Positions 1 through 4,692 are shown, numbered from the stretch's first letter. The stretch is DNA of 4,692 nucleotides from a virus (IMGVR_UViG_2563366929_000001:1-4692), one strand, 5' to 3'. Notes: generated from the sequence alone by a model not told the origin. Numbers and translations: made by a program.

Positions 1-41
1 CGTTGACGGACTTCGGGGGAAAAACGAGTATTTTTAGTCAT
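1..41 (-). CDS. IS3-family transposase OrfA, 5' partial (first 13 codons; remainder lies outside the window)
   Basis: ATG at 41..39 on the minus strand preceded by AGAGG; translation MTKNTRFSPEVRQ matches the IS629-type OrfA N-terminus as I recall it. Mirror image of 4652-4692. Confidence 0.7.
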   Translation of the reverse strand, partial: MTKNTRFSPEVRQ

Positions 42-95
42 CCTGTTTACCTCTTTCTCAGGAAGTTTAGTCTCCAGGATTCCCGGGGCGGTTCA
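1..95 (-). mobile_element. IS3-family insertion sequence (IS629-like), inward-facing orfA-proximal end; element continues beyond the window start
   Basis: Positions 1-95 are the exact reverse complement of 4598-4692 (checked base by base). Read on the minus strand the terminus starts TGAACCGCCCCGGG at position 95, followed by a Shine-Dalgarno and ATG at 41..39. I recognise the terminus and the MTKNTRFSPEVRQ N-terminus as IS629/IS1203-type from memory; no database search was run. Confidence 0.85.
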
Positions 96-134
96 GAGGG
101 TCATTATGGTGAATATGCTGGCTTGCTGGTGGGC

Positions 135-149
135 TATTCCTGCTCTTTA
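135..149. repeat. Direct repeat copy A: TATTCCTGCTCTTTA
   Basis: 15/15 identical to 393-407 on the same strand. Flanks add similarity (GG before, C-TTGC after), giving roughly 27 bp with a few mismatches. On the minus strand it reads KEQE plus a stop codon (TAG). Confidence 0.8.
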
Positions 150-391
150 ACATTGCCATGCCGCGATGTTTTCCAGGTATGCGACCCCATTTTTGTGTGC
201 CTGTACTCTTTAAGGAATTTCTCAAGGACAAACGCACAGGGCGCGAATCTGTCTGACTCATGCTCGTACGCTATCTTTCTGCGCTGTCTTTTCCGTGCCG
301 GTGATGGTGTATTGGTTGATTCTTTGTTGGTCATGGCGCTGCCCTGTAAAATAATGCACCGTAGTTCCTCACACCACGGCACCTATAGTGG

Positions 392-697
392 TTATTCCTG
401 CTCTTTAGCTTTGCGCCGCTGGAGTTCTTCACGCGCGACGGTGACGAGTTGCCCGATTTCCTCGGCAGCTTTGACTCCGATTTTTTCCACCTGCGCTAGG
501 GCATCGAGCGAAGAAACCAGGGGATTTTCTCCGCTTCCTTCTGCCTGGCGGCGGGCGATTTCACCGCGAACGGCTGTAATCACGAAAGCGGCTATTGTTT
601 CCCCTTCCGTTTTCGAATTTTCCATTTCCTCGATTACATCATGGGGGAAGCGGATATTTTTCATTTGCGATCTGCTGTTGATGTTTCCTGTTGCCAT
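392..697 (-). CDS. Small putative DNA-binding regulator, possibly ribbon-helix-helix (Arc/CopG-like); 101 aa, or 90 aa if translation starts at the ATG at 664
   Basis: Intact ORF divergent from the rightward operon. The segment NIRFPHDVIEEMEN followed by GETIAAFVITAVRGEIARR has the strand-then-helix pattern of Arc/Mnt-type proteins (compared from memory). Neither candidate start has a strong Shine-Dalgarno, so the start is uncertain. Fold assignment is inference. Confidence 0.5.
   Translation of the reverse strand: MATGNINSRSQMKNIRFPHDVIEEMENSKTEGETIAAFVITAVRGEIARRQAEGSGENPLVSSLDALAQVEKIGVKAAEEIGQLVTVAREELQRRKAKEQE
393..407. repeat. Direct repeat copy B: TATTCCTGCTCTTTA, overlapping the last codons of the 392-697 minus-strand gene
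   Basis: 15/15 identical to 135-149. On the minus strand it encodes the C-terminal KEQE of the regulator gene; the TAA stop is at 394..392. Confidence 0.8.
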
Positions 698-718
698 CAG
701 AATGTCCGGTTATTTTGA

Positions 719-737
719 GGTGTGTACACATTACACC
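719..737. repeat. Operator-like palindrome 1 (GGTGTGTACACATTACACC), core TGTGTACACA perfectly palindromic
   Basis: Seen directly; GGTGT at 719-723 and ACACC at 733-737 flank the 10-bp palindrome. Overlaps a candidate leftward extended -10 (minus strand TGgTGTAAT, plus coordinates 730-738). Confidence 0.5.
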
Positions 738-759
738 AAAAGGTGTGTTGATAAAACAC

Positions 760-789
760 TTGACACTGTAGCACACTTAAATTTAATTT
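760..789 (+). promoter_or_regulatory. Candidate sigma70 promoter for the rightward operon: -35 TTGACA (760-765), 18-bp spacer, -10 TAATTT (784-789)
   Basis: Perfect -35 consensus. The -10 matches the consensus T, A and final T positions only. Prediction by eye, not experimentally supported. Confidence 0.35.
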
Positions 790-821
790 GTATATACACC
801 AATTGTTGTGGTGTATATACA
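789..821. repeat. Operator-like palindrome 2: 12-bp perfect inverted repeat TGTATATACACC (789-800) / GGTGTATATACA (810-821), 9-bp spacer
   Basis: Exact reverse-complement arms; sits over the predicted -10 and start region of the rightward promoter. Confidence 0.55.
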
Positions 822-887
822 GCAACGCCCCGCAGTGGTGGCACACATGCAGGGCGTCTAACCAAACCGTTAAACGAGGTAACGATT

Positions 888-1253
888 ATGGCTGGAACAC
901 AGCATACCCAAACTCACCCTAAATTTATATACACCTTCCTGGCGGTGCACCGTGATTGCATTGCTGACGGTAAAAACACTGTACACGTAGCCGCCGATAC
1001 GCTGGTTGATGCCTGCGAGATGCTCAATGACATGGGCTATATCTCGGCAACATGGAAAGGGCGCGAAGAAAACACGCTGTTTATTCAGAAATGCGAAAAC
1101 AATTTTATCTGGCGTTTTATCGCCCTGAGTACGGCACAACCGCGCGTGATTCACATCGAGGCCACCAGCGAACAGGAAGCACGCCAGCAATCTCCTGATG
1201 GCTGCGTGATGGTATTCGCTGCCCGTATTCGCCAGGAGGTGGAGCATGTGTAA
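888..1253 (+). CDS. Hypothetical protein (121 aa), first gene of the rightward operon
   Basis: ATG at 888 with GAGG 8 nt upstream (876-879). The stop TAA (1251-1253) overlaps the next gene's ATG (1246) in the 8-nt pattern ATGTGTAA. The 3..1253 ORF in the track is the same frame, but only the part from 888 is credible. No family recognised. Confidence 0.65.
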   Translation: MAGTQHTQTHPKFIYTFLAVHRDCIADGKNTVHVAADTLVDACEMLNDMGYISATWKGREENTLFIQKCENNFIWRFIALSTAQPRVIHIEATSEQEARQQSPDGCVMVFAARIRQEVEHV

Positions 1254-1470
1254 TGCAACATGGCCTGATGCAGCGGTAGACGCTATCAAAACGCTGATGG
1301 ATTCACTTATTGAGATTTCTGCTATCGCTGGTGTGGCGCATAAACACGCAGCCAGAGAATCAGAATGCATCTCCCATTATTTAGCATTTGTGCAGCTAAA
1401 AGCCGATCAGGCACTGGATAAGGCCGGAAAAATTATCATGGCTGATGTGCAGGAGGTGCACCATGCATAA
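1246..1470 (+). CDS. Hypothetical small protein (74 aa); C-terminus (DVQEVHHA) resembles that of gene 4
   Basis: ATG at 1246 with AGGAGG (1234-1239) 6 nt upstream; 8-nt overlaps with both neighbours. Confidence 0.65.
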   Translation: MCNATWPDAAVDAIKTLMDSLIEISAIAGVAHKHAARESECISHYLAFVQLKADQALDKAGKIIMADVQEVHHA

Positions 1471-1828
1471 CCTGTCAATTTCTGACCTTAACAGCATTCA
1501 GTTTGACGAGAAATTTACCGGGCAGTTGCTGGTCAATGTGGAGAACGGGCGCATAGTGCGTAATTACCACCTGCCGGATGGTGCAATTGCCGGAAGCGTT
1601 GAAGCATTGCTGGAGCTGGCGGAACGTGCGCGACTGATTAAGCCGTCAACGTGCCATCACGATGATGATCTGCATTTTACCGGGTGTATGGTGAGTCACT
1701 ACGAAAACGGCGTTGAAGTATCCTGCGAACGTCTGCGTGATGATTGCTGTTTCGGCACACTGCCGGAATTTATCGAATTGCTGACCAGTTGCGGTTATCA
1801 GGTCATTCAGGGGGGTAAACATGCGTGA
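1463..1828 (+). CDS. Hypothetical protein (121 aa) made of two tandem copies of an FTG-motif domain; the C-terminal copy is Cys/His-rich
   Basis: ATG at 1463 with AGGAGG (1451-1456) 6 nt upstream, preferred over the track's ATG at 1445, which has no Shine-Dalgarno. Internal repeat FTGQLLVNVENGRIV / FTGCMVSHYENGVEV. Stop TGA at 1826-1828 overlaps the next ATG at 1821. Confidence 0.65.
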   Translation: MHNLSISDLNSIQFDEKFTGQLLVNVENGRIVRNYHLPDGAIAGSVEALLELAERARLIKPSTCHHDDDLHFTGCMVSHYENGVEVSCERLRDDCCFGTLPEFIELLTSCGYQVIQGGKHA

Positions 1829-2054
1829 TGATCGTTTTAATTCCCTGAAACAGGAGTTTGATGGCGCACCGGAAGATACATCGGGCGCATTGTTGAGCAT
1901 TGCTGACATGATGAAAGCTGCATATTTTCTTATCAATACCAGTGGCTACAAGTCAGAGGGTGAAATGATTCTTAGTATTGCGTCGGACTATGCTGAATAT
2001 GTGGCAGAGACGCGTTACAGAAGAAAATCTCTGGAGGATGTAAGCCATGCATAA
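1821..2054 (+). CDS. Hypothetical small protein (77 aa); C-terminus (LEDVSHA) resembles that of gene 2
   Basis: ATG at 1821 preceded by GGGGGT (1811-1816); 8-nt overlap ATGCATAA with the next gene. Confidence 0.6.
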   Translation: MRDDRFNSLKQEFDGAPEDTSGALLSIADMMKAAYFLINTSGYKSEGEMILSIASDYAEYVAETRYRRKSLEDVSHA

Positions 2055-2247
2055 TCATGAAGCGCATGTACCCGTAGTGCTTAATGTGCCAGATGATTTC
2101 ACCGGACGCGTGCTGGTTTACCTGGATAAAGGGAAAGTGAAATCACAATGCCGACTGAAAAGTAATGAGATTGTTGGTTCTCCTGAATTTTTTTCTGAAC
2201 TTTGTATTCGTGCGGAAATAAAACCGGAACTGCTGACAGGAAAATAA
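2047..2247 (+). CDS. Hypothetical small protein (66 aa), single-copy FTG-motif domain paralogous to both halves of gene 3
   Basis: ATG at 2047 with GGAGGA (2033-2038) 8 nt upstream. By-eye alignment to the gene 3 N-terminal domain gives about 40% identity over ~44 residues (FTGRVLVYLDKGKV..., ...ELCIRAEIKP versus ...ELAERARLIKP). Confidence 0.65.
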   Translation: MHNHEAHVPVVLNVPDDFTGRVLVYLDKGKVKSQCRLKSNEIVGSPEFFSELCIRAEIKPELLTGK

Positions 2248-2251
2248 AACC

Positions 2252-2542
2252 ATGAAAAAGAAATATTCTGGCTTTACTGCCAGCGGCCTCTCTCGGCCTG
2301 AAATCCGCCCCGGTGATATTTTCCGGGACACCAGACGCGGGGGACGGGTGGTTATTCGTCACGTTACGCCAGGCAATATCACCTACCGCCGTGAGGCTTA
2401 CGAATATGACTGCGTAATGCCGCGCCGTCAGTTTGAGCGTGATTTTATTCTGGTGGAAAACAAACAACAGGCAGTGGCGAGACGTGCAGCCACGAATATT
2501 AAAAAAATCCGGGCAATGTTGGTTGCGGGAGGTAAGAAGTGA
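2252..2542 (+). CDS. Hypothetical basic small protein (96 aa); loosely reminiscent of DUF4222-type prophage proteins (low confidence)
   Basis: ATG at 2252, 4 nt after the previous stop, with only a weak Shine-Dalgarno (AGGA about 11 nt upstream). Stop TGA (2540-2542) overlaps the GTG start of the replication gene. The family hint comes from a remembered RPGD...RRG...V pattern, not a search. Confidence 0.55.
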   Translation: MKKKYSGFTASGLSRPEIRPGDIFRDTRRGGRVVIRHVTPGNITYRREAYEYDCVMPRRQFERDFILVENKQQAVARRAATNIKKIRAMLVAGGKK

Positions 2543-4344
2543 AAAACGCACCGAATTTAAAATATCAGCCGAAGGATAAATTCACCGAGGTAATCATTTT
2601 TGCCGGGACGGATGCTTACGCCCATGCTCAACACTGGATTGAAAGCGAAGGACGAAAACACGGCGATAACGTGCCTCCTGTTTACCTGGGGCCAAAGCAA
2701 CTGGCAGACCTGGCGAATATCCGCATTGTCGACGATGAACGCCGCTTTGCGCGTGTCTATCTCGCGGGGGAGATAGAGCCAATCCAGATCAATGCTATTG
2801 CTGAAAAGCTGGCGCTGGCTGGTGTACAGGACGCGAAATTATACAAAGGTATCACCGACCGGGAGCCGGAAAACTGGCGCGACTACCTGCAACGGATCCG
2901 CGAACAGGCAGAGAGTGGGGAAGTTTCAGCGATGAAATTAGCCACAAAAAATATTGACCTATCCAGGCCAGCACTAAATCAGATGGGAGCCAGCCAGAGA
3001 GGGGAAGTGTTACTTGAATATTATGGAAGAGCACTGGCTATAAATGATGATTCTGATGTAGTTCACCATTACAACGGAATTGTCTGGGTGCCTGTATCTG
3101 ATAAGGAACTCCAGCGGTCTATGGCGAAGATTTTTATTGATGCTGGAATCAGTTATTCGCAAAACGCCATTAAATTTGCCGTAGACACAATGAAATTGAG
3201 CCTGCCTGTTATGGGCGGGGCAGACAGGAATCTTATTGGATTCAGTAACGGGGTATTTGATACCCGGACGGGAAATTTTCGGGAGCATAACAAAAATGAC
3301 TGGTTGTTAAATGCCAGTGAATTACCGTTCAGCCCACCAGCAGAGGGGGAAACGCTGGCAACACATGCGCCGAATTTCTGGAAGTGGCTGCGTCGTTCGG
3401 TGGCAGATAATGATCGTAAAGCTGATCGCGTACTGGCGGCATTATTCATGGTACTGGCGAACCGGTACGACTGGCAGTTATTCCTTGAGGTAACAGGCCC
3501 AGGCGGAAGCGGTAAAAGTGTGATGGCTGAGATTTGTACCATGCTGGCGGGTAAGGCCAACACAGTATCGGCAAGCATGAAGGCTCTGGAAGACGCAAGG
3601 GAACGCGCGTTAGTAGTTGGCTTTTCGCTGATTATCATGCCGGATATGACTCGCTACGCTGGCGATGGTGCAGGAATTAAGGCAATTACTGGCGGCGACA
3701 AGGTGGCAATTGATCCGAAACATAAAGCCCCCTACTCCACACGTATTCCGGCAGTAGTGCTTGCGGTAAACAATAACGCCATGTCATTCAGTGACCGAAG
3801 CGGGGGGATCTCGCGTCGTAGGGTGATATTTAATTTCTCTGAGGTCGTACCGGAGAACGAACGCGATCCCATGCTGGCGGAAAAGATAGAAGGCGAACTG
3901 GCGGTAGTGATTCGCCATTTGCTAACACGATTTACCGACCAGGACGAAGCTAAAAGACTACTTTATGAGCAGCAAAAATCAGAAGAAGCGCTGTTGATAA
4001 AGCGCGAAGGTGATTCACTGGTGGACTTTTGCGGCTATCTGATGTCGTTGGTTAAATGTGAAGGAATGATGGTGGGCAATGCGGAAATAGTGCCATTTAG
4101 CCCGAGGCGATACCTGTATCATGCTTATTTAGCCTATATGTCAGCGCATGGCCTGGGAAAACCAGTATCACTGACACGCTTTGGTACTGATATGCCAGGA
4201 GCTATGGCGGAATACGGAAAGGAGTATAAGCGGGCTAAATGCACTAAAGGCCCGGATAAAGGGCGAGTGATAACAAATGTTCTGTTAGATGATGATGCTG
4301 ATGGCTGGTTGCCAGCAGCTACAGGGATTAACGACAGAACATAA
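2539..4344 (+). CDS. Replication protein with P4 alpha / D5-type SF3 helicase (NTPase) C-terminal domain; putative primase-helicase/replication initiator of the element (601 aa, GTG start)
   Basis: Walker A motif GPGGSGKS (nt 3496-3519). Downstream ITGGDKVAIDPKHK (from nt 3685) followed by VVLAVNNN resembles the conserved motifs of the phage/plasmid primase P4-family C-terminal domain as I recall them. GTG at 2539 with GGAGG (2528-2532) 6 nt upstream; the first in-frame ATG is ~130 codons downstream, so GTG is the likely start. I did not recognise a canonical Toprim EGxxD motif in the N-terminal ~320 aa. Confidence 0.85.
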   Translation: MKNAPNLKYQPKDKFTEVIIFAGTDAYAHAQHWIESEGRKHGDNVPPVYLGPKQLADLANIRIVDDERRFARVYLAGEIEPIQINAIAEKLALAGVQDAKLYKGITDREPENWRDYLQRIREQAESGEVSAMKLATKNIDLSRPALNQMGASQRGEVLLEYYGRALAINDDSDVVHHYNGIVWVPVSDKELQRSMAKIFIDAGISYSQNAIKFAVDTMKLSLPVMGGADRNLIGFSNGVFDTRTGNFREHNKNDWLLNASELPFSPPAEGETLATHAPNFWKWLRRSVADNDRKADRVLAALFMVLANRYDWQLFLEVTGPGGSGKSVMAEICTMLAGKANTVSASMKALEDARERALVVGFSLIIMPDMTRYAGDGAGIKAITGGDKVAIDPKHKAPYSTRIPAVVLAVNNNAMSFSDRSGGISRRRVIFNFSEVVPENERDPMLAEKIEGELAVVIRHLLTRFTDQDEAKRLLYEQQKSEEALLIKREGDSLVDFCGYLMSLVKCEGMMVGNAEIVPFSPRRYLYHAYLAYMSAHGLGKPVSLTRFGTDMPGAMAEYGKEYKRAKCTKGPDKGRVITNVLLDDDADGWLPAATGINDRT

Positions 4345-4371
4345 TACGAAATTTATAAGCTGAAACGTAAA

Positions 4372-4572
4372 GGTAGACGGTTGGTAGACAGATTCACTTA
4401 ACCCTCTACCAACCATCTACCAATTAATATTTTGAATTATAAAGATATTTTCAATGTGGTAGAGAGGTAGACAGTTATTTCTATATTCCTAAACCACGGG
4501 GGGTATATAAAAAACAGATAGTTAAGGGGGCATTTTTTAAATTTCTCTTTTAACTGTCTACACTGTCTACCA
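4372..4572. repeat. Iteron array and AT-rich tracts directly downstream of the replication gene; candidate origin of replication (P4 crr/ori analogue)
   Basis: GGTAGA(C/G) in forward orientation at 4372, 4383, 4458 and 4466 (two as GGTAGACAG). Reverse-complement copies at 4405-4410, 4416-4421 and a tandem 9-mer pair ACTGTCTAC at 4553-4561 and 4562-4570. Several pairs are spaced 11 bp apart, about one helical turn. AT-rich stretches at 4421-4457 and 4476-4553. Confidence 0.6.
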
Positions 4573-4597
4573 TTTAGTAAAAATCATTAATTATCAA

Positions 4598-4692
4598 TGA
4601 ACCGCCCCGGGAATCCTGGAGACTAAACTTCCTGAGAAAGAGGTAAACAGGATGACTAAAAATACTCGTTTTTCCCCCGAAGTCCGTCAACG
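4598..4692 (+). mobile_element. IS3-family insertion sequence (IS629-like), inward-facing orfA-proximal end; element continues beyond the window end
   Basis: TGAACCGCCCCGGGAATCCTGGAGACTAAACTTCC... begins at 4598, with Shine-Dalgarno AGAGG and ATG at 4652. Exact reverse complement of 1-95. Confidence 0.85.
4652..4692 (+). CDS. IS3-family transposase OrfA, 5' partial (first 13 codons)
   Basis: ATG at 4652; translation MTKNTRFSPEVRQ, then the window ends. Confidence 0.7.
   Translation, partial: MTKNTRFSPEVRQ

Follow-up and report, generated by a model that had tools for sequence, protein, structure and literature searches.

A probable EcCICFT073-type regulatory and replication module between two insertion sequence ends

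Phage-inducible chromosomal islands (PICIs) of Gram-negative bacteria have int, alpA and pri as conserved, essential genes and are transcribed mostly in one direction (PMC6092414, PMC10111431). A further hallmark is an origin placed immediately 3' of pri, in which an AT-rich region lies between two iteron sets (PMC6092414), and PerC alleles are frequent cargo (PMC6092414, PMC10111431). Of the PICI proteins, Int, AlpA and Pri-Rep alone have distant relatives in P4 (PMC6092414, PMC10111431). The pri-rep-ori stretch in one such island, EcCICFT073, has been shown experimentally to replicate autonomously; when AlpA is over-expressed, replication that depends on pri and int is induced, and alpA is turned on by helper phages (PMC6092414). 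Here we analyse a viral stretch of 4692 bp, IMGVR_UViG_2563366929_000001:1-4692 (the whole of which we call the window), and consider it very probable that it contains the part of an EcCICFT073-type Gram-negative PICI that serves regulation and replication, in a copy damaged by insertion sequences (IS). We base this assignment on the colinearity of its genes with EcCICFT073, a full-length match of its replication protein (Rep), a shared GGTAGA iteron and the int-alpA context in which the module is found in relatives. PICIs of this kind have been described before and the element is common in E. coli; the island that carries the module in relatives, integrated at thrW, is an uncharacterised member.

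Gene order, replicase and origin

The window consists of a 4502-bp unique segment (96-4597) between two IS ends, and seven of its nine open reading frames (ORFs) run rightward, the remaining two leftward. Its features are:

1..95, minus strand: left end of an IS3-family element (terminal inverted repeat and start of orfA), facing the module
134..334, minus strand: small, conserved leftward ORF, 66 amino acids, downstream of ylcI/ynfO on the same strand and annotated in identical relatives
392..697, minus strand: YlcI/YnfO-family protein, 101 amino acids (NCBIfam 8e-18), divergent from the replication operon
698..887: divergent control region, with promoter-like boxes, a palindrome and a hairpin as read from the sequence
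888..1253, plus strand: Icd-like protein, 121 amino acids (NCBIfam NF033153, 6e-23), first gene of the rightward operon
1246-1470, plus strand: small ORF, 74 amino acids, phrog_5146 (like the PHROG families of the next three lines, without an assigned function)
1463-1828, plus strand: small ORF, 121 amino acids, phrog_340
1821-2054, plus strand: small ORF, 77 amino acids, phrog_24341/2512
2047-2247, plus strand: small ORF, 66 amino acids, phrog_340
2252..2542, plus strand: DUF4222 protein, 96 amino acids (Pfam PF13973, 1.3e-19), overlapping Rep by 4 nt
2539..4344, plus strand: Rep, replication initiator-helicase of the PICI Pri-Rep type, 601 amino acids, with D5_N, DUF5906 and Pox_D5
4345..4597: replication origin, proximal part only, with eight iterons, cut at 4597 by an IS
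4598..4692, plus strand: left end of a second copy of the IS3-family element, with the same junction as in strain FDAARGOS_1301

EcCICFT073 is located between roxA and phoQ in strain CFT073 and reads int, alpA, a leftward hypothetical gene, a leftward YlcI/YnfO gene, an Icd-like gene, four small ORFs, a DUF4222 gene, a 584-amino-acid primase-family protein and a non-coding region, after which come a hypothetical gene, SSB, PerC, capsid, decoration and rppA. Colinear counterparts in this island, with 35-74% identity and in the same order and orientation, exist for seven of the nine window ORFs: the leftward 66-amino-acid ORF (67%), YlcI/YnfO (45%), the Icd-like protein (74%, in its C-terminal part), the ORFs of 74 and 77 amino acids (35% and 53%), the DUF4222 protein (52%, at the same position) and Rep, whose amino acids 1-591 are 44% identical to Pri-Rep over its full length (E 1e-175). 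The two leftward ORFs are thus the same two in both islands, and only the two rightward phrog_340 ORFs (121 and 66 amino acids) had no EcCICFT073 match.

Rep comprises a TOPRIM-like N-terminal domain (amino acids 1-130), D5_N, a superfamily 3 (SF3) helicase with Walker A motif GPGGSGKS (320-327) and a C-terminal winged-helix origin-binding domain (491-592). Its N-terminal 140 amino acids are 47.5% identical to EcCICFT073 Pri-Rep and have no P4 counterpart, the Zn-ribbon/TOPRIM primase domain of P4 alpha (amino acids 1-320) being replaced by the short TOPRIM-like domain common to Rep and EcCICFT073. The P4 primase motif EGYATA falls on FAGTDA of Rep in a by-eye alignment, i.e., the catalytic glutamate is an alanine, and the DxD position reads ExE in Rep and Y-x-A in the functional EcCICFT073 protein; judged from its residues, the Rep N-terminus would be a non-catalytic TOPRIM-like domain. 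Homologues of this domain carry a DUF927 annotation or AAA_25 domains, and domain swapping at about amino acid 140 is evidently common. The remainder of Rep is of wider distribution: amino acids 141-592 are 49% identical to P4 alpha 322-769 (E 3e-156), 491-592 match the structure of the P4 alpha origin-binding domain (1KA8, 6e-19), and 232-434 match PDB 7OLA, a 'DNA primase' that is presumably the Rep of a Staphylococcus aureus pathogenicity island (SaPI).

The region 3' of rep (4345-4597) is non-coding and has a GC content of 31%. Exact GGTAGAS (GGTAGA(C/G)) sites occur seven times in the window, six of them within 4372-4571, against an expectation of 0.46 for the whole window, and none of 200 shuffles reached seven. 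Together with two degenerate copies they make up eight iterons in direct and inverted pairs, starting at 4372 and 4383 (plus), 4405 and 4416 (minus), 4458 and 4466 (plus), and 4556 and 4566 (minus), which surround an AT-rich stretch at ~4422-4456. The window thus has the PICI arrangement of iteron sets around an AT-rich region immediately 3' of rep, and it shares the iteron core with EcCICFT073, where 11 GGTAGA hexamers lie at the equivalent position directly 3' of pri-rep. The avian pathogenic E. coli strain E123 carries the module IS-free and 96% identical, and its intact origin extends past the point equal to window 4597: two more GGTAGACNGTTGGTAGACAG pairs flank a 57-nt spacer of ~80% AT, and four of its 11 hexamers lie beyond the IS insertion point. 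Owing to that insertion, the distal iteron set is gone from the window. We regard GGTAGACNG as a candidate binding sequence for the C-terminal domain of Rep (amino acids 491-601). An Rfam plastid 3'UTR motif over the iteron palindrome scored 30.5 bits, below its gathering score of 52.7, and was taken as chance.

The original prediction had read this organisation as a P4-like satellite early region, i.e., as a regulator, small early genes, an SF3-helicase protein and iterons, with iterons and small proteins unlike those of P4 itself. All four parts are present, and the two differences are borne out: the iteron is GGTAGAC where the type-I ori/crr repeat of P4 is TGTTCACC, and apart from Rep, the window proteins have no match among the annotated P4 proteins. 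At two positions the resemblance to the P4 left operon goes beyond gene order. One is the helicase and winged-helix part of Rep, and the other is the Icd-like gene, as P4 (NC_001609) carries on its minus strand, at 8170-8364, an unannotated 65-amino-acid ORF that matches the Icd-like NCBIfam model with 76 bits (1.6e-21). This ORF, which may be the one called eta in the P4 literature, lies directly upstream of epsilon, inside the obsolete 'cI gene product' CDS, so that the P4 left operon and the PICI operons both begin with an Icd-like gene; P4 also resembles the window in having small ORFs before the replicase and an iteron block (crr) directly 3' of it. A divergent P4-like element, with sid, delta, psu and epsilon changed beyond recognition or located outside the window, would account for these likenesses, and it would also suit the integrase (43%) and AlpA/Vis (37%) identities found in intact relatives.

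We nevertheless consider such an element improbable, and the reading already largely refuted. A tblastn search with all P4 proteins against the E123 locus (17.2 kb, our complete relative, with an island of 16.7 kb) returned only Int (43%), Vis/AlpA (orf88, 37%) and the C-terminal part of alpha. Epsilon and orf151 stayed at E > 0.09 by BLASTP and tblastn in the window and E123, orf106 was likewise unmatched, and for sid, delta and psu, in a comparison at sequence level only, nothing fell below E 0.3 by tblastn in the E123 locus and no such Pfam or PHROG match was seen. The primase domain is of the EcCICFT073 type, and a second iteron cluster, such as P4 has with its ori plus crr, was not seen elsewhere in the island. 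The P2/P4 cos, GGCGAGGCGGGGAAAGCAC, had no match with up to four mismatches in E123 or the window. Immunity by the CI RNA (Rfam C4 family), located upstream of the left operon, is established P4 biology, and the Rfam scan that detects it in P4 (C4 74.9 bits, isrK 60.8 bits) found neither RNA in the window, E123, EcCICFT073 or the circular record pZ1323HEC0475-3 (pZ1323 circle). The SatelliteFinder P4 core comprises int, psu, delta, sid, alpA, epsilon and alpha (PMC10085698), of which only three of seven are present in the intact island, alpha being matched in its helicase and origin-binding parts and not in its primase domain; the P4-type integrase and AlpA are also common to PICIs (PMC6092414). 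The parallel therefore does not extend to epsilon, orf151 or the primase domain, and what was proposed as a divergent member of the satellite family appears to be the early region of a satellite-type integrative element indeed, but one of the EcCICFT073-type PICIs and not of the P4 family.

Within the EcCICFT073-type module, the rightward block (888-4344) follows a 190-bp control region and consists of seven tightly packed ORFs, i.e., six small early ORFs (888-2542) ahead of rep. At four of its six junctions the genes overlap by 8 nt (ATGnnTAA/TGA), in each case behind a Shine-Dalgarno sequence of the GGAGG type, and at one they overlap by 4 nt (GTGA); given these start/stop overlaps behind GGAGG-like sites, the block is a translationally coupled operon. 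The two phrog_340 ORFs in it are alike at their start (MHNLSISDLN... and MHNHEAHVPV...) and look like paralogues. PADLOC gave no credible match for any of the nine window proteins. A 25-nt direct repeat, 88% identical, spans the 3' ends of both leftward ORFs (132-156 and 390-414), and both proteins consequently end in ...KEQE, which points to a small duplication or to a 3' signal common to the two. A 416-amino-acid ORF at 3-1253 on the plus strand was rejected as an artefact that crosses the IS end and both leftward genes in antisense before it enters the frame of the Icd-like protein; similar gene-caller errors are seen in relatives, e.g., a 512-amino-acid call in two of them (L013 and L017).

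The thrW island in relatives and the state of this copy

The window itself contains no tRNA, integrase or att repeat, as the original prediction had remarked of the integrase and attachment site, and its context (the int and alpA side) was read from relatives. A nucleotide search of 5426 complete E. coli genomes matched the unique segment nearly full-length 90 times and in part in 1689 genomes, with 2178 of 2181 places being chromosomal. The closest relative, FDAARGOS_1301 (L001), and E123 both carry it in an island adjoining tRNA-Thr and proA, with 23-nt direct repeats 16,672 bp apart in E123; in L001 the repeats differ at one position and are separated by about 16.5 kb. This thrW island begins with a P4-type integrase, a hypothetical protein, AlpA (PF05930, 2e-19) and AntA/B, continues with the window module, and ends with ProQ/FinO, PerC, a 380-amino-acid protein, several small proteins and variable defence cargo. 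An integrase next to a tRNA, for which the original prediction had suggested looking, is therefore present in relatives, while the psu, sid and delta genes and the P2/P4 cos that it also named are absent from the intact one. As in described PICIs, the integrase stands at a specific attachment site with alpA just downstream in the same orientation, both in L001 and in nine further contigs. Ten contigs with an identical Rep were inspected, and nine showed the proA-side (thrW) context, with ProQ/PerC or an IS after the module. In one locus, L012 (GCA_035792855.1, JAMWJK010000001.1, 876624-898429), the identical Rep, the small-gene module and ProQ/PerC stand behind a different integrase of 409 amino acids, at abgR-smrA, which indicates that the replication module is exchanged between integration modules.

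Rep homologues are found on 71 plasmid records, some of them 75-86% identical (tblastn), and the intact island is without recognisable packaging genes. Both would be expected if the module were the replicon of a plasmid or of another non-satellite integrative element (an integrative and mobilizable element, an integrative and conjugative element or a phage-plasmid) that uses a P4-alpha-type helicase. We hold this to be very improbable, as almost all E. coli nucleotide matches are chromosomal, the identical Rep is in int-alpA islands in 10 of 10 contexts, and the intact island has no relaxase, type IV secretion or partition genes. The best 'plasmid' records turn out to be a mislabelled 4.9-Mb chromosome and a 10.8-kb circle with int, alpA and capsid genes; a plasmid setting, which was to have spoken against a satellite, was thus not seen, the only small 'plasmid' being this excised circle.

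A decayed remnant of an ordinary temperate prophage is scarcely credible. YlcI/YnfO, Icd-like, AntA and DUF4222 proteins do occur in lambdoid and P1-type prophages as well, all of them match PHROG families, and the copy in the window is IS-damaged. The intact relatives, however, form a conserved ~16.7-kb island with direct repeats and without genes for tail, lysis, portal or terminase, and Pfam and PHROG scans found no structural or lysis families in the E123 island or in the window. The gene order is that of experimentally proven PICIs, and a collection of 50,697 phage records held no nucleotide match to the window.

Damage is nevertheless evident in this copy. Positions 1-95 and 4598-4692 are 95-nt, 100% complementary inverted ends of one IS3-family element, annotated by PGAP in the identical relative L001 as 'IS3 family transposase, programmed frameshift', which we take to be IS629/IS1203-like; the left end of each copy is turned towards the module. 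L001 14996-19592 matches window 96-4692 at 100% identity, right IS junction included, and there the IS (1310 bp, 19498-20807) replaces 1355 bp of the island. What was lost to it, identically in the window, are four iteron hexamers, proQ/finO, perC and the 5' end of the gene for the 380-amino-acid protein. The left junction (position 95/96) lies between antA and the leftward 66-amino-acid ORF and is absent from all 5426 complete E. coli genomes searched. The arrangement is compatible with either an independent inverted insertion or an IS-mediated inversion, and the whole could be a composite-transposon-like unit or the product of such an inversion. With the distal third of the origin, proQ and perC lost and a second IS standing between the module and the int-alpA-antA side, this copy is probably crippled and not a self-sufficient mobile replicon. 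The original prediction's alternative of a degraded remnant therefore holds for this copy and not for the island family.

Several points weigh against the assignment to an EcCICFT073-type PICI. The context beyond the two IS copies is known from relatives and not from the source genome, and a helper, induction, excision and transfer are predictions for the thrW island, for which related Rep modules in a record labelled 'induced prophage' and in a 10.8-kb circular record are the sole, indirect support. No gene for capsid morphogenesis, terS or rpp could be recognised in the intact relative, and neither a lambda cosN nor a P2/P4 cos was found in the E123 island; beyond a weak 42-amino-acid helix-turn-helix match to phrog_57 (5e-6), E123 gave no capsid or terS family match. 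Without a packaging or interference module, the thrW island would be a 'Type C' PICI in SatelliteFinder terms (int, alpA, primase), as is the proven PICI EcCIMP1, and this type is called uncertain by the SatelliteFinder authors; P4-like elements fall into it as well (PMC10085698). In its helicase part, Rep is marginally nearer to P4 alpha (49%) than to EcCICFT073 (43%), and the helicase cassette is 86% identical in a Morganella protein annotated 'toprim domain-containing'; these similarities point to a replicase pool common to satellite families. The regulator role of YlcI/YnfO, furthermore, is that of an unproven candidate.

The distal cargo slot of the thrW island is variable (L005 14652-16250 versus L001 24224-27322), with GapS1 in E123 and a DNA methyltransferase, a DUF262/GmrSD-like protein and a HEPN nuclease in FDAARGOS_1301 and others. 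It is adjoined by a MarR/vat island behind a truncated second integrase, which points to a tandem array at thrW. A 175-amino-acid helix-turn-helix protein of the intact island was tried as an RppA homologue and showed no significant similarity (E 0.06).

Control region and a proposed course of induction

The control region has a promoter-like TTGACA (760-765) and TTTAAT (782-787) with a 16-nt spacer, followed by a perfect 13-14-bp palindrome containing ACACC/GGTGT (788-822) and a second hairpin, GCCCCGC...GC(A/G)GGGC (825-857), after which comes an invariant TCTAACCA. In an alignment with EcCICFT073, the pZ1323 circle and E123, the TTGACA box, ACACC...GGTG, the hairpin arms (with changes) and TCTAACCA are all kept, and from their sequence we would regard these elements as promoter- and operator-like. 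The leader (788-857) folds into two strong hairpins (RNA fold z = -3.85), which were compared with L007 (18730-18815) and L008 (about 2800-2880). The second of them, together with the invariant UCUAACCA, is kept with sequence changes in the four islands compared. This second hairpin occupies the position where P4 and P1 carry the C4 antisense RNA system, and no Rfam family matches it; Rfam found no C4/isrK-type RNA in the whole window (E <= 1) or in 690-900 alone (E <= 10), and a match to the R1162 antisense RNA (17.9 against a gathering score of 55) was taken as chance.

YlcI/YnfO has a ribbon-helix-helix-like N-terminus and a long C-terminal helix, and with weak fold support for a ribbon-helix-helix DNA binder it is a candidate DNA-binding regulator. 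Its gene, the position of that gene and the operator-like repeats are kept in EcCICFT073, the thrW island and the pZ1323 circle. YlcI/YnfO might be a local repressor of the replication operon, acting on the ACACC/GGTGT palindromes that overlap the promoter, and we put this forward as an unlikely proposal. The 2018 description left open whether Gram-negative PICIs possess a local repressor (PMC6092414). If the proposal were true, YlcI/YnfO would be a functional analogue of the Stl/Rpr proteins of Gram-positive PICIs, replacing the C4-type immunity RNA of P4. A literature search on YlcI, YnfO and DUF3950 found no functional study.

By homology to EcCICFT073, we infer the following course for the intact island. 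A helper phage would turn on alpA, which lies outside the window beside the integrase, and AlpA would activate rightward transcription from the promoter at ~760-787. The coupled operon would then be expressed, i.e., the Icd-like protein, the small ORFs, the DUF4222 protein and Rep, and Rep would bind the GGTAGAC iterons by its P4-alpha-like winged-helix C-terminus, melt the adjacent AT-rich DNA and load itself as an SF3 hexameric helicase. This helicase could drive replication of the excised circle, with priming probably by host DnaG, since the TOPRIM-like domain of Rep is without the catalytic glutamate. Local control would probably be exerted by the divergent YlcI/YnfO and the conserved palindromes over the promoter.

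Comparison with known satellites

The main value of this analysis lies in filing the module correctly: for all its P4-like first appearance, it belongs, in all probability, to the lineage of EcCICFT073-type PICIs, which provides a validated model from which the iteron, the replicase architecture and the control region can be read. It also appears that satellites are built from common parts, with one Rep helicase cassette joined to different N-terminal domains, one replication module found with at least two integrases, and one thrW integrase found with at least two replicases. Given that the thrW island carries anti-phage cargo and a PerC regulator, its mobilisability matters for the spread of defence and virulence regulators. 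The window illustrates how such islands are inactivated by IS elements, and this particular copy is unlikely to move by itself.

Rep also has relatives over its full length in two other records. The pZ1323 circle (pZ1323HEC0475-3, NZ_CP148328), filed as a circular 'plasmid' of 10.8 kb, has int, AlpA, YlcI/YnfO, Icd-like, DUF4222 and primase genes and a protease-capsid fusion, in the same layout as here, with Rep 78% identical. Similarly, vB_KppS-Ant (LR881103), which spans 16.5 kb and bears the label 'induced prophage', contains int, primase, capsid, portal and terminase genes; its Rep is 73% identical, it shares the layout of int, regulator, small ORFs and primase, and it resembles a capsid-forming PICI. 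Downstream of Rep, these elements differ from the thrW island in having either capsid, portal and terminase genes or a protease-capsid fusion.

EcCIMP1, the PICI of E. coli MP1, is mobilised by the helper phage Kapi1 (PMC11773190). It occupies the same thrW/proA site as our island, with an integrase gene 92% identical at the nucleotide level, has AlpA, AntA, DUF4222, Icd-like and PerC genes and adjoins the same MarR/vat island. Its replicase, in contrast, is a 918-amino-acid TOPRIM/DUF927 protein, it has genes for P22-like ejection proteins, and it shows almost no sequence similarity to the window genes. More distantly, SaPIs and other Gram-positive PICIs likewise place iteron sets around an AT-rich region, immediately 3' of a Rep helicase that loads itself (PMC6092414), but they share no meaningful sequence identity with the module and are governed by an Stl repressor and not by an AlpA activator.

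EcCICFT073, the prototype of the Gram-negative PICIs, is a validated counterpart of the module. Besides the colinear genes and the shared iteron core, PerC lies downstream in the intact thrW relatives as it does in EcCICFT073. The two islands differ in integrase and attachment site (the roxA-phoQ region versus thrW) and in what follows the origin, EcCICFT073 having capsid, decoration and rppA genes and lambda-type cos sites, whereas the thrW island, in which no cos was found, carries ProQ/FinO, the 380-amino-acid protein and defence cargo.

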